64,000 nucleotides of DNA, from assembly GCA_039029395.1 (NCBI GenBank), contig JBCCGG010000014.1, positions 48,622-112,621 of the forward strand, in the 5' to 3' direction. Below, in pieces: positions 9,894-14,384 of this stretch. A model generated the notes under the pieces. The model worked only from the letters and a program-made list of their open reading frames with translations, had not been told where the DNA came from and ran no database searches. The translations under genes were made by a program, and so were the position numbers. Numbering within the stretch: position 1 is the first letter of the stretch; every line of letters begins with the position of its first letter. The DNA comes from Pseudomonadota bacterium. Lineage in GTDB: Bacteria > Pseudomonadota > Alphaproteobacteria > Kiloniellales > JAKSDN01.

Positions 9894-11714
9894 CTAGAGC
9901 CCGAGCCTGGAGAGTGTCTCGTTGGTCGGCACGCCCTCGGTTGTCCAGCCGCGCTCCTGGTAATACTCGGGTATCATCTTGGCGATCTCCGCGACCTTAC
10001 CCTTGGCGGTGCCAGTGGGCGCCGGGGTTTCGAGCAGGCGCTTGGGCAGGTTGTCGTCGGCCTTGGTGAAGCCCGCCGCCAGATTGAACTGGCGCTCTAG
10101 GTTGAAGGTCCGCTCGCCCGATTCCACCAAGCGCTCCTCGCTCCACTCGCCCTCGCAGGCGGCGTCGACCAGCTGCTGAAACTCCGGCACGCCCCAAGCC
10201 GCCACGGTGAAGAGGCAAAGCCCAGTGGAGTCGATCATCGCCACCCGGTCCTGAGAGTCCTTGCAAGGCTTTGCTTTGCCGTTGCCGGTCTGGTCTTCCA
10301 TGTCCTCGGGGAAGGTGTCGTGCTTGAGGTGGCAGGCGCCCCGGTTGCTGGTAACGTAGCCCAGGCCCATGCCCTGGAGCGCGCGCGGATCGTAGCCCGG
10401 GAACTCCTGGCCCTTGACCCCCATGAAGAGCTCCGGATGGCCGTACTTCTCGCACAGGCGCTTGGCGCCAAGGCCGAGCTCCTTGCCGAAGCCCTCGCCC
10501 TTTCCAGTCTTCTCGGCCATCACGGTCAGCGCCTCGGCATTGCCGAAGTTCAGCTCCATACCGTCGGTCTGCTCCTTGGTGAGCGCGCCAAGCTCGTAGA
10601 GCTCCATGGCGGCCGATAAGGTCACGCCGAAGGAGATCGGGTCCATGCCATGCTCGTTCATCATGTAGCCGGCAAAGGTCAGCGCGTCGATGTCGTCGAC
10701 CGCGAGCATGGGGCCGAAGGCATAGGCGGTCTCGTATTCCAGCCCGCCCGAGGCGTGGCGGTACTCCGGCCGATTGACGATCGTGAAGTGCTGCTCGTCG
10801 ATATGGGCGATGCGCCCGCAGGCGATGGTGCAGCCGAAGCAGGCCTTGTTGGTGATCAGGTTGACGTGGCCGTGCTCGTTGGGCGTGGTCATGGCAGCCG
10901 GGTTGATCCTCTCGGTGCCGTCGAACTGGACCTCGTTGTAGTTGCGGGTCGGCAGGCCGCCAAAGGTCTCCATGGCGTCGATCATGTCGTTGGTGCCGAG
11001 CTCGGTCAGGCCCTTGCGGCCATCACTCTCGGCGAGCAGCTTGTTGGTCGCCTTGACCGCCTCCATGAAGCGCTTGGGATCGTCGACCGTGACGCCCAGG
11101 GTGCCGTGCACGCCGATCGCCTTGAGGTTCTTCGAGCCCATCACCGCGCCGACGCCGGAGCGCCCGGCCGCCCGATGCAGGTCATTGACGACGCAAGCAA
11201 AGAAGACGCCGTTCTCGCCCGCCTCGCCGATCGAGGCGACTTTCATCAGGGGGTTGCCGTGTTGCTTCTTCAGCCATTCCTCGGTGTGCCACACCGTGGT
11301 GCCCCAGATCTCGTCGGCCGGCAGGATCTCCACCTTGTCGTTGACGATATGGAGATAGACCGGCTTGGGCGAACGACCCTCGAGGATCAGCAGGTCGTAG
11401 CCAGCGTACTTGAGCTCGGCACCGAACTTGCCGCCCGAATTGGAGCAGGCGATCGCCCCGGTCAGCGGCCCCTTGGTGACCACCGCGTAGCGCCCGGAGG
11501 TCGAGGCCATGGTGCCTGTGAGCGGGCCGGTCGCGAAGATCAGTACGTTCTCCGGGCTTAAGGGATCGACCTTGGGGTCTATGGACTCGACCAGGTACTT
11601 GCTCGCCAGACCCCGTTCGCCCAGGTAGTCGTTGGCCCACTCCATGTTGAGGGGCTCGGTCGAGTGGGTGCCGTCGGTCAGGTTGATCCTGAGAACTTTA
11701 CGCTGCCATGACAT
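9894..11714 (-). CDS. Aldehyde:ferredoxin oxidoreductase (tungstopterin AOR family)
   Basis: ATGPLTG, SNSGG, RAAGRSGVGAVMGSKNLKAI, CxxCxxxC, EYET, GMDPIS, RGACH, DSTGLC. Confidence 0.92.
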   Translation of the reverse strand: MSWQRKVLRINLTDGTHSTEPLNMEWANDYLGERGLASKYLVESIDPKVDPLSPENVLIFATGPLTGTMASTSGRYAVVTKGPLTGAIACSNSGGKFGAELKYAGYDLLILEGRSPKPVYLHIVNDKVEILPADEIWGTTVWHTEEWLKKQHGNPLMKVASIGEAGENGVFFACVVNDLHRAAGRSGVGAVMGSKNLKAIGVHGTLGVTVDDPKRFMEAVKATNKLLAESDGRKGLTELGTNDMIDAMETFGGLPTRNYNEVQFDGTERINPAAMTTPNEHGHVNLITNKACFGCTIACGRIAHIDEQHFTIVNRPEYRHASGGLEYETAYAFGPMLAVDDIDALTFAGYMMNEHGMDPISFGVTLSAAMELYELGALTKEQTDGMELNFGNAEALTVMAEKTGKGEGFGKELGLGAKRLCEKYGHPELFMGVKGQEFPGYDPRALQGMGLGYVTSNRGACHLKHDTFPEDMEDQTGNGKAKPCKDSQDRVAMIDSTGLCLFTVAAWGVPEFQQLVDAACEGEWSEERLVESGERTFNLERQFNLAAGFTKADDNLPKRLLETPAPTGTAKGKVAEIAKMIPEYYQERGWTTEGVPTNETLSRLGL

Positions 11715-11750
11715 GATGCACTGTCCTCATGCTAGAAAAGATCGAGCCGC

Positions 11751-12221
11751 TTAGGCGGGCCGGCCGTGGCCGGCGAGCGCGGAGTCCTTCATGCGCTCAT
11801 AGCCCGTCCAGTCGGCCGGAACATAGGTGATCGCGTCGGTCGGACAGGCCTGCGCGCATTGAGGATCGCCGCCGCAAAGGTCGCACTTCATCACCTTGCC
11901 GGTGTCCTGGTTGTAGTTGATCGTGCCGAAGGGGCAGGCGATCGTGCAGACCTTGCAGCCGACACAGATGGAATCGCTGACCTCGACCGCGCCGGTCTCG
12001 GCGTTGCGCGAGATCGCGGAGACCGGACAGGCGTGCAGACACCAGGCCTCGGCGCACTGGGTGCAGGTGTAGGGTATCGCCCGCCGGCCGTGCTCAAACT
12101 CGAAGATCTTGATGCGCGATTTGGCCGGGTTGAAGCGGCCTTCATGCTCGAAGGAGCAGGCCATCTCGCACTGCAGGCAACTGGTGCACTTTTCAGGATC
12201 GATCAGTAGCGCTTTATGCAT
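11751..12221 (-). CDS. 4Fe-4S dicluster protein (AOR iron-sulfur subunit)
   Basis: Four Cys clusters (CTSCLQCEMAC, CTQC..C...CP, CVGCKVCTIACP, KCDLC..C...CP); start at MHKALL. Confidence 0.9.
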   Translation of the reverse strand: MHKALLIDPEKCTSCLQCEMACSFEHEGRFNPAKSRIKIFEFEHGRRAIPYTCTQCAEAWCLHACPVSAISRNAETGAVEVSDSICVGCKVCTIACPFGTINYNQDTGKVMKCDLCGGDPQCAQACPTDAITYVPADWTGYERMKDSALAGHGRPA

Positions 12222-12335
12222 TCCGTCCCTCATCTGAACAGACGGGGGCCGCAAACCTCCCCCGCATCGAGCCGGCACTTTAAAGGCTTCGGCGGCTTAG
12301 CGATAGACCCGAAAATTCTGTGGCTATTGGCCAGC

Positions 12336-12641
12336 TTAGGCAAGCAGATAGCGCGCCACGGCGACCGCCGCGACCCCGGCGCCGACGCCGGCGAAGTCGT
12401 TGCCGGAGAGCTGCCGGGCTATAAATGCGGCCAAGATGCCGAGCAGCTCCGGCGGCCGCCCGGAGGCGGCGGCCGGCGCCAGGATCGCGACCACCACGGC
12501 AAGCGGGATAGCCTGCAGCCAAGCCTCCACGCGGGGCGTGAGGCGCACCCAGCCCATGGCGAAGAAGCCCGCCGCCCGGCAGACGTAGGTGACCAGGCCC
12601 ATGGCCAGAAACGCGATCAGGAGATCAGGCGACGGGCTCAT
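12336..12641 (-). CDS. azlD: AzlD family membrane protein
   Basis: MGLVTYVCR..G motif, hydrophobic, overlaps azlC. Confidence 0.82.
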   Translation of the reverse strand: MSPSPDLLIAFLAMGLVTYVCRAAGFFAMGWVRLTPRVEAWLQAIPLAVVVAILAPAAASGRPPELLGILAAFIARQLSGNDFAGVGAGVAAVAVARYLLA

Positions 12642-13329
12642 GGCGCCAGGCCGCGGTCAAGCTGCCGGCCAGGCCGCCGGCCAGGATGTACCAAGGCCCG
12701 GGCAGGGCCCAATGAACCGCAATCGCACTGGCCGCGGCGGCGACGAGCGGCCAGAGATCGCCGCGCCCGCGCCACAGGCTAACCGCCATGGAGGCGCAAA
12801 AGGCGACCAGCAGGAAATCCAGCCCCCACGCCTCCGGCGCGCCGATCGCCCGGCCCAGGCGGTGGCCCAGCAGGGTGCCGCCCAGCCAGGCGGCGTAGAG
12901 CGCGAGCCCGCCGCCGACCAGGAAGGCGCCGTCGCGCCGGCCGGCGGCCCACTCGCCCATGGCCTGGAGCCAATTGGCGTCGCCCATGAAGAACAGCGAG
13001 CCGTAGGCGCGCGGCCGGCTGAGCCGTGCAAACCAGGGTCTGAGCGCGGCGCCCATCAACAGGTAACGGGCGTTCATGCCGAAAATCGCGATCAGCAAGG
13101 CGACCAGCGGGATCGGCTCGGCCCAAATCTGCAGGGCGACGATTTGGGCCGAGCCGGAGTTGACCAGAGCGCTCATCATCAGCGCCGCCGTCAGGTCGAG
13201 GCCGGCTTGGTCGGCCAACACGCCGAAGGCGAGCCCATAGAGCACGGTGCTGGCCGCGAAGGCGGTGATCGCCCGGGCGCCGGCCCGCGCGCCGGCAAGG
13301 GTGAAGGGGACCGGGTCCCGGCGAGCCAA
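12625..13329 (-). CDS. azlC: AzlC family branched-chain amino acid export permease
   Basis: SGSAQ, NARYLLMG, FFMGDANW, GLDF; TTG start at 13329 with AAGGAGG RBS. Confidence 0.85.
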   Translation of the reverse strand: MARRDPVPFTLAGARAGARAITAFAASTVLYGLAFGVLADQAGLDLTAALMMSALVNSGSAQIVALQIWAEPIPLVALLIAIFGMNARYLLMGAALRPWFARLSRPRAYGSLFFMGDANWLQAMGEWAAGRRDGAFLVGGGLALYAAWLGGTLLGHRLGRAIGAPEAWGLDFLLVAFCASMAVSLWRGRGDLWPLVAAAASAIAVHWALPGPWYILAGGLAGSLTAAWRHEPVA

Positions 13330-13330
13330 T

Positions 13331-13403
13331 CTAACCTCCTTAAGGGTTAGTTTGACAGAACCTAGGGCGCCTGCTTTCATTCGTCAACCATCATGGTGGT
13401 TAG
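13331..13403. promoter_or_regulatory. Two copies of the palindrome YAACC-N8-GGTTAG (candidate operator)
   Basis: CTAACC-tccttaag-GGTTAG (13331-13350) and TCAACC-atcatggt-GGTTAG (13384-13403) in the divergent gap. Confidence 0.65.
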
Positions 13404-13405
13404 AA

Positions 13406-14038
13406 ATGACGACCCTTGATCCCCTGCCCTCCTATGGCGACCGGACGCCCAAGCTGATCGGCGGCCTGCCCTGCTTGGACTTCGTCAACACGGTGGAGTG
13501 GCGCGGCGATCCCACGGCTTGGGGCGAGCACCTGATCAATTACGGCGAGCTGATCCATTGGGCGGGAGCGGCTGGCCTGGTGGCCCGCAGAGAGGCCAAA
13601 CGGCTGCTCAGCGCCGCCAAGCGCGACCCAGATGCGGCCCAAACGGTCCTTAAGGAAGCGGTCGACCTGCGCGAGACGCTGGCACGCTTGCTGCGGAGCC
13701 CAGATCTACCCGAAGAGTCGGACCTGGCGCGGGTCAACCGTCTGCTCGCCCAAGCGCCGGCGCGTGGCGTCCTATCGGCCGCGGATGGCGGATTCGCCTG
13801 GGCCGGCGGCGGTGAGTCCCTCTGGCGCCCGCTCTGGCCGGTCTTGTGGAGCGCCGCCGATCTGCTGACCTCCGAGCGGCTCGGCCAGGTGCGCGCCTGT
13901 TCCGATCCGCGCTGCGGCTGGCTCTTCCTGGACACCTCGCGCAACCGCTCCCGGCGCTGGTGCGCCATGGCCGACTGCGGCAATCGCGCCAAGGCCAGGC
14001 GGCACTACGCGAGGCGCCTCGAGCAGAAAGGCCCTTGA
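13406..14038 (+). CDS. ABATE domain / CGNR zinc-finger protein
   Basis: LDFVNT N-terminus; C-terminal CSDPRCGWLFLDTSRNRSRRWCAMADCGNRAK. Confidence 0.9.
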   Translation: MTTLDPLPSYGDRTPKLIGGLPCLDFVNTVEWRGDPTAWGEHLINYGELIHWAGAAGLVARREAKRLLSAAKRDPDAAQTVLKEAVDLRETLARLLRSPDLPEESDLARVNRLLAQAPARGVLSAADGGFAWAGGGESLWRPLWPVLWSAADLLTSERLGQVRACSDPRCGWLFLDTSRNRSRRWCAMADCGNRAKARRHYARRLEQKGP

Positions 14039-14045
14039 GCGGAGA

Positions 14046-14276
14046 TCAGCTGTTAGCAGGTGGCGCGACGCGCTTGTGGGCCTCCTCGATGATGGATTTG
14101 TTCAGGATTCGAACCGCGCCGACCATCAGCAAGCGCATGTCCTCGACGATGTAGTCCGCCAAGTCCTCGTCGGAGATCTGCTCGCCCTCGATATCTAGGC
14201 GAAAGCCCTGGCCTTGAATGCCGCCGCCGTTCGAAAAATCCACCTCGAAGTCGAACTGCACCCGTTTGTCGCTCAT
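14046..14276 (-). CDS. Small protein resembling the N-terminal domain of cyclase (kynurenine formamidase-like) family proteins
   Basis: RVQFDFEVDFSNGGGIQGQGFRLDI..LADYIVEDMRLLMVG.VRILNK; GGAG RBS upstream. Confidence 0.7.
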   Translation of the reverse strand: MSDKRVQFDFEVDFSNGGGIQGQGFRLDIEGEQISDEDLADYIVEDMRLLMVGAVRILNKSIIEEAHKRVAPPANS

Positions 14277-14346: not shown

Positions 14347-14384
14347 ATGTAACTAGTATTATAGGTTACATCGTGTTTTGTCAA
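14347..14384 (-). promoter_or_regulatory. Sigma70-like promoter overlapped by ATGTAAC-N11-GTTACAT inverted repeat
   Basis: Minus strand TTGACA-aaacacgatgtaacc-TATAATACT; inverted repeat at 14347-14371. Confidence 0.55.

Follow-up and report, generated by a model that had tools for sequence, protein, structure and literature searches.

The window analysed here is a 64-kb stretch of DNA (64,000 nt) in which a gene encoding an ABATE/zf-CGNR protein stands back-to-back with an azlC–azlD gene pair. The genes, together with the translation signal of azlC, are arranged as follows.

13406..14038, plus strand: gene for a 210-residue ABATE + zf-CGNR protein (Pfam), the proposed regulator
12625..13329, minus strand: azlC, first gene of the proposed target operon (Pfam AzlC, PF03591, 104 bits), with a proposed TTG start at 13329
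12336..12641, minus strand: azlD (Pfam AzlD, PF05437, 55.5 bits)
13335..13341, minus strand: azlC Shine–Dalgarno sequence AAGGAGG, 5 nt before the TTG at 13329 (read from the sequence)

Pfam assigned two domains and no others to the product of the 13406–14038 gene, i.e. ABATE (PF07336; residues 22–157, 72.6 bits against a gathering cut-off of 24.4) and zf-CGNR (PF11706; residues 162–204, 70.8 bits against a gathering cut-off of 24); there was no TetR_N helix–turn–helix domain. The four zinc-ligand cysteine residues (C165, C170, C186 and C191), G192 and N193 are invariant in an alignment of 19 sequences, and R194 is invariant in an alignment of eight. On these sequence criteria the protein belongs to the ABATE/zf-CGNR family. 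Its two-domain architecture is also that of the founding ABATE + CGNR zinc-finger protein, Jann_2411 from Jannaschia sp. CCS1 (PDB 3H0N), which phmmer matched to it with an E-value of 1.2e-5. Jann_2411 is reported to be a dimer; its treble-clef finger was predicted to bind DNA and its N-terminal domain is a putative ligand sensor, and the authors proposed ligand-controlled DNA binding (PMC2954205).

The mechanical list of open reading frames had lengthened azlC to an ATG at 13380. We favour the TTG start at 13329 because it is preceded by a strong Shine–Dalgarno sequence and because orthologous AzlC N-termini begin to align at residues 2–3 of the TTG-start protein; in addition, a stop codon lies immediately upstream of the AzlC start at locus L029. 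The same ribosome-binding site and ortholog N-termini support 76 nt as the correct length of the gap between azlC and the CGNR gene (13330–13405). The azlD gene overlaps the end of azlC by 17 nt and, by family membership and homology, the products of the two would here form an amino-acid exporter, with branched-chain amino acids, histidine or others as substrates. The azlCD pair is thus flanked upstream by the ABATE/zf-CGNR gene and downstream, on the same strand as azlD (9894–12278, minus), by genes for a 4Fe–4S dicluster ferredoxin and an aldehyde:ferredoxin oxidoreductase. Pfam analysis of the neighbours on both flanks found no Lrp/AsnC-family gene in or beside the azl operon, in keeping with the suggestion of the first-pass annotation that the usual Lrp-type regulator has been replaced at this azlCD pair.

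The same annotation had reported that the gap holds two copies of YAACC-N8-GGTTAG, and had read them as a probable operator. Both copies are exact and their coordinates were confirmed.

13331..13350: candidate operator site 1, CTAACC-tccttaag-GGTTAG, with perfect 6-bp arms (CTAACC at 13331–13336 and GGTTAG at 13345–13350, 8 nt between); read from the sequence
13384..13403: candidate operator site 2, TCAACC-atcatggt-GGTTAG (TCAACC at 13384–13389 and GGTTAG at 13398–13403, 8 nt between); read from the sequence

Site 1 spans the azlC Shine–Dalgarno sequence, the AAGGAGG lying inside it as had been described, and is separated from the azlC TTG start by 1 nt. Site 2 ends at 13403 and the ATG of the CGNR gene begins at 13406 (13406–13408), so that the 2-nt interval given earlier is correct; the two bases are AA. 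Read on the minus strand, the left arm of site 2 with the two bases that precede it is GGTTGAC.

These two sites stand out from their surroundings. Within the 64-kb window, YAACC-N8-GGTTAG with at most one mismatch has three matches, of which two come from site 1 (one per strand) and one from site 2, against 0.44 expected, and none of 100 shuffles reached three. In the whole genome (6,158,662 bp) the exact pattern is found only in the azlC–CGNR gap, where both sites fall within 73 bp, whereas the reversed control pattern occurs ten times. We also derived a weight matrix from 36 N8 sites at 22 other loci, all of them in other genomes; it ranked site 2 first (29.8 bits) and site 1 second (26.5 bits) genome-wide, with the next unrelated match at 18.6 bits. 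The exact pattern TAACC-N(8,9,18,19)-GGTTA has two copies in the genome, each upstream of a CGNR gene; one is site 1 and the other is an N18 site before a paralogous CGNR gene on contig 24. Sites with at most one mismatch number 103 in the genome, or approximately one per 60 kb.

A third family-like palindrome, TAACT-N9-GGTTA, lies at 14350–14368, 312 bp beyond the regulator stop codon. It overlaps the −10 element of the sole consensus promoter of the region (TTGACA-18-AATACT, 10 of 12; 14355–14384, minus strand), which points to an acidic 76-residue open reading frame (14046–14276, minus strand) that matches no Pfam family and is without a homologue at the other loci compared. As one-mismatch sites are expected about once per 60 kb, this palindrome may be due to chance, or it may be a third operator.

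To place the arrangement in a wider context, we drew on two sets of relatives. A protein search of 61 related genomes gave matches in 18, and in five further places among these genomes (L015, L018, L019, L020 and L022) a CGNR gene is divergent from azlC or azlCD; at L019, L020 and L031 the azlC gene was found by tblastn, having been missed when the neighbour was picked as the longest divergent open reading frame. A second scan, over one genome per species, gave at least 586 public relatives, and among the best 80 of these, which were kept, ten have the CGNR gene divergent from azlC. With L080 (identical to L022) counted once with its twin, there are 15 unique divergent CGNR–azlC loci, including that of the window, distributed over several proteobacterial orders, and their regulators have 32–52% identity to the protein of the window. 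At least one N8 palindrome, matching in nine or all of the ten arm positions, is present at each of the 15. Both sites are present at eight loci, the azlC-proximal site only at five and the regulator-proximal site only at two. Where present (13 loci), the azlC-proximal site lies 0–25 nt ahead of the azlC start, and the regulator-proximal site ends 0–10 nt ahead of the regulator start; in ten of the 15, GTCAACC-N8-GGTTA stands immediately before the CGNR start. From one locus to another the two sites are 40 to 54 bp apart, and a phasing that would favour cooperativity is therefore not conserved. From these comparisons the CGNR–azlCD pair appears to be a recurrent module, which is new with this analysis.

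The proposal of a CGNR operator carried the expectation that the motif recurs upstream of other CGNR genes, for which motif discovery had been recommended. We therefore collected the 250 nt before 99 CGNR genes from many phyla (80 public loci and 19 from relatives), leaving out L009 (at a contig end, with no upstream DNA), L017 (a near-copy of L016), L024 (a partial match), L006 (the third paralogue of this genome) and loci duplicating the window's own genome. Every 5-mer inverted repeat with a spacer of 0–30 was then scanned, independently of the starting motif. TAACC/GGTTA emerged as the top half-site: TAACC-N18-GGTTA, present at 27 loci, ranked first and TAACC-N8-GGTTA, present at 11, ranked third; the N19 form was counted at seven loci and the N9 form at four, and repeats of these four spacers were absent from the in-gene and far-upstream control sets. 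When one mismatch was tolerated, spacers of 8 (28 loci) and 18 (35 loci) stood out sharply in the histogram, followed by 19 (12 loci) and 9 (seven loci), the remaining spacers having 0–9 loci each.

The motif is indeed present at other CGNR genes. Two of the 99 regions are duplicates (L030 of L008, and L080 of L022) and were counted once with their twins. Among the 97 unique upstream regions, in which related genomes are non-independent samples, 71 have a site with at most one mismatch and 47 an exact one; the in-gene controls gave 0/97, the far-upstream controls 1/97, and 200 dinucleotide-preserving shuffles gave a mean of 1.4 regions with a site and a maximum of five. The other 26 regions are without a site by the criteria used, and as several of them have other spacers or lie in operons, 71 of 97 is a lower bound. 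Most N18 loci have two sites, 41–52 bp apart. Site-bearing loci belong to the Chloroflexota, Bacillota, Actinomycetota, Acidobacteriota and Pseudomonadota. The first-pass annotation knew of no established binding site for CGNR proteins, and our search of the full-text literature outside subscription journals likewise found no published DNA site for the ABATE/zf-CGNR family, nor a DNA target, regulon or ligand.

The motif accompanies the regulator gene in the company of many different neighbours. The divergent neighbours of site-bearing CGNR genes comprise more than ten kinds, among them AzlC, alpha/beta hydrolases, EamA, MFS, DinB_2, glyoxalase/VOC, class III aminotransferase and DUF1223, the neighbour being taken as the longest open reading frame on the divergent strand, a rule by which some were without a Pfam match or mis-picked. 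A second azlCD pair of this genome lies behind a CoA-transferase gene and has neither a CGNR gene nor a site. When we searched for the motif first, as a pair of sites, in 401 genomes of the class, it was found in the window's own genome and five others (the reversed control pattern in two), and all five of the other matches stand immediately before a CGNR gene, none of them beside azlC. On this evidence we assign the motif to the CGNR family rather than to azlCD. Four of the five face a glyoxalase-family gene. Six CGNR genes of the N8 class (L111, L112, L114, L115, L050 and L055) face small glyoxalase/VOC-family genes. Besides azlCD, glyoxalase/VOC genes may thus be a second recurrent class of candidate targets of the 8-bp clade.

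The genome of the window has two further zf-CGNR genes. The second (contig 24, L026) has an exact TAACC-N18-GGTTAC 29–56 nt upstream and stands back-to-back with a class III aminotransferase gene, and the same pair and site are found in a related genome (L028). Given this N18 site and the N8 sites of the window, two paralogues in one cell have common half-sites with different spacers. The region before the third, more distant gene (contig 35, L006; 49.7 bits) shows no clear TAACC/GGTTA site.

We next compared the spacer class with the phylogeny of the proteins. A quick maximum-likelihood tree was made of the 99 proteins; on it the N8 label requires three changes, compared with 21.7 when shuffled (0/500 as low), and every N8 row is from the Pseudomonadota. 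Constraining the 25 N8 rows to one clade gave a likelihood above that of the tree from the free search, with a p-AU of 0.737 which, since the N8 group was defined after inspection of the tree, means only that a single origin is not rejected. The 8-bp form thus appears to track one proteobacterial protein clade, and this 8-bp-spacer variant of what is apparently a family-wide operator is new here. The two main spacers differ by 10 bp, i.e. one helical turn. We found no alignment column, and no distance between ABATE domain and finger, that separates the N8 from the N18/19 proteins. At six loci (L032, L036, L038, L044, L056 and L090) the N18/N19 sites enclose a further GGTTA-like element, placed as in an N8/N9 site, reading TAACC-N8/9-GGTTA-like-N4/5-GGTTA, which may be a link between the spacer classes. 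An actinobacterial clade (L071, L081 and L106; support 99*) has an exact TAACC-N9-GGTTA, with a methyltransferase-domain open reading frame and alpha/beta hydrolases as neighbours.

We can picture, tentatively and with somewhat more doubt than belief, a family in which all members would read one half-site, TAACC/GGTTA, and subfamilies would differ by exactly one helical turn, the spacer being 18–19 bp in the majority of phyla but 8 bp in the one proteobacterial clade that includes the protein of the window. This could reflect two dimer geometries or flexibly tethered zinc fingers able to extend by a further turn; the 8-bp clade would have been recruited repeatedly to AzlCD, and amino acids would be the first candidate class of effector.

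The following elements place the sites relative to putative promoters.

13382..13387, minus strand: putative azlC −35 element TTGACG, overlapping the left arm of site 2
13359..13364, minus strand: putative azlC −10 element TAGGTT, 17 nt after the −35
13352..13357, plus strand: TTGACA abutting site 1, a weak and tentative −35 element of the CGNR gene (read from the sequence)

The azlC −35 was placed here because GGTTGAC is a −35-like element aimed at the divergent gene. It recurs, in that GT precedes the left arm in 13 of the 15 sites at other loci with a CAACC arm, which gives GGTTGAC on the opposite strand. As for the −10, TAGGTT is found at equal spacing in L008 despite an otherwise different spacer, L045 and L057 have TAGTTT, and TAnnnT occurs 16–18 nt after the −35-like element at seven of 19 loci; where the distance between sites is shorter, the distal arm itself (TATAACC) takes the place of the −10. 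The azlC transcript would tentatively start near 13352, in which case site 1 would span approximately +2 to +21 and site 2 would overlap the −35. For the CGNR gene, TTGAC after the distal site is also present in L008, L018 and L077, and we found no convincing −10 candidate to go with the TTGACA at 13352–13357. As a consensus sigma-70 scan of 13250–13480 found no promoter (nor a terminator) and the hexamers are weak, the promoter map is a tentative one.

Comparison among genomes shows the palindromes to be real, conserved and tied to CGNR genes. The operator reading draws support from the 71 of 97 CGNR regions, from all 15 azlC-linked loci and from the weight matrix of other genomes that puts the two local sites at the top of this one, and we regard it as very probable that the CGNR protein binds both palindromes directly. 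It would do so as a homodimer in which each subunit sets its treble-clef zinc finger on one TAACC/GGTTA arm; palindromic sites fit a dimer such as that of Jann_2411, and imply dimerization only indirectly. On site 2 the protein would cover the putative azlCD −35 together with the 5′ end and start codon of the regulator gene, and on site 1 roughly the first 20 nt of the azlCD mRNA with its ribosome-binding site, where it would also abut the possible regulator −35. With the sites occupied, azlCD and the regulator gene would both be off. The ABATE domain would sense a small molecule, plausibly an amino acid or analogue exported by AzlCD, and the ligand would release the protein and derepress the exporter. 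In this genome the regulon would be local, comprising azlCD and the regulator itself. Repression we infer from the positions of the sites only, which coincide with the putative −35, the predicted start of the transcript and the ribosome-binding site, and on balance we lean towards the CGNR protein being a ligand-released repressor of azlCD. Taken as a whole, a dimeric CGNR protein that sits on both palindromes, represses azlCD and its own gene and is released by a small molecule is the reading we consider likely.

The same protein on the same sites could instead be an activator or a dual regulator, with ligand-bound activation from site 2 near −41.5 and site 1 serving autoregulation or repression. 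The putative −10 (13359–13364) does put the centre of site 2 at approximately −41.5, the classical position of a class II activator, and the azlC −10 (TAGGTT) is weak, with no consensus promoter, weak promoters often being activator-dependent. Lrp is known to control the exporters BrnFE (Corynebacterium glutamicum) and YgaZH (Escherichia coli) as an activator; these too are AzlCD-family exporters under an amino-acid-responsive regulator, although one of another family, and this precedent is why we keep the activator in view. However, the location of site 1 over the azlC transcript start and Shine–Dalgarno sequence suits repression, as does the distal arm in the −10 place at shorter-distance loci, and we consider activation rather unlikely. 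It is also conceivable that the palindromes act as RNA hairpins that make a protein unnecessary, the stem of site 1 hiding the azlC ribosome-binding site and site 2 forming a 5′ hairpin of the regulator mRNA. The 5′ region of azlC does fold with the arms of site 1 paired (−18.4 kcal/mol, z −2.15, equalled by six of 200 shuffles), but over 71 loci the arms keep the letters TAACC/GGTTA with no covariation, the sites vary in position relative to the genes, and the 8- or 18-nt spacers are AT-rich. These constant letters, varied positions and AT-rich spacers argue for sequence-specific recognition by a protein and make the hairpin reading very unlikely, although a hairpin and protein binding could coexist.

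That another transcription factor, global or of the Lrp type, binds here, with the CGNR gene as a mere neighbour, would fit the fact that azlCD homologues elsewhere are under Lrp-type control, and the case for CGNR binding is a comparative one. Against this, the motif stands beside CGNR genes in five phyla and with over ten kinds of neighbour, the second azlCD of the genome is without it, and the spacer class follows the CGNR tree, so that we regard a foreign factor as highly improbable. As to the two repeats being a functionless chance similarity, one-mismatch sites are not rare in this genome (the 103 noted above), but two of them within 73 bp, in an exact form that is unique in 6.16 Mb and kept in 15 orthologous contexts, leave this a negligible prospect.

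In TetR/TetA systems the operators are two palindromes in the shared control region of divergent regulator and transporter genes. The present locus resembles such modules in having a proposed one-component regulator back-to-back with a transporter operon, and two palindromes in a short shared region, which as operators would overlap the putative promoters of both genes; the TetR/TetA logic of autoregulation and ligand release is what we would extend to it. In contrast with the helix–turn–helix of TetR, which the protein of the window does not have, a zinc finger would here recognize TAACC/GGTTA, with 8- or, elsewhere in the family, 18-bp spacers.

With respect to its own family, no DNA site, target gene or ligand was reported for Jann_2411, whereas for the protein of the window we propose a specific operator, an arrangement of two such sites and an operon as the target. 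With respect to the exporter, work on Bacillus subtilis describes AzlCD as having a known amino-acid exporter function and azlBCD as repressed by the Lrp-type AzlB (10.1101/2022.07.07.499250). The azlBCD–brnQ system likewise joins an AzlC/AzlD pair to a local regulator of its own, the B. subtilis one being a repressor, but that regulator is of the Lrp type, whereas the one proposed here is an ABATE/zf-CGNR protein with no Lrp-type gene adjacent.

ABATE/zf-CGNR proteins form a large and widespread family that, ever since the structure of 2009, has carried the annotation 'putative stress-induced transcription regulators'. The present locus makes this family experimentally approachable, offering a candidate 20-bp operator, a two-site architecture and a compact local regulon, and the AzlCD-type target is of use in that the substrates of the exporter point to effectors worth trying. 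If our reading is true, AzlCD exporters are not always Lrp-controlled, and the ABATE/zf-CGNR family would have a second, shorter operator geometry.
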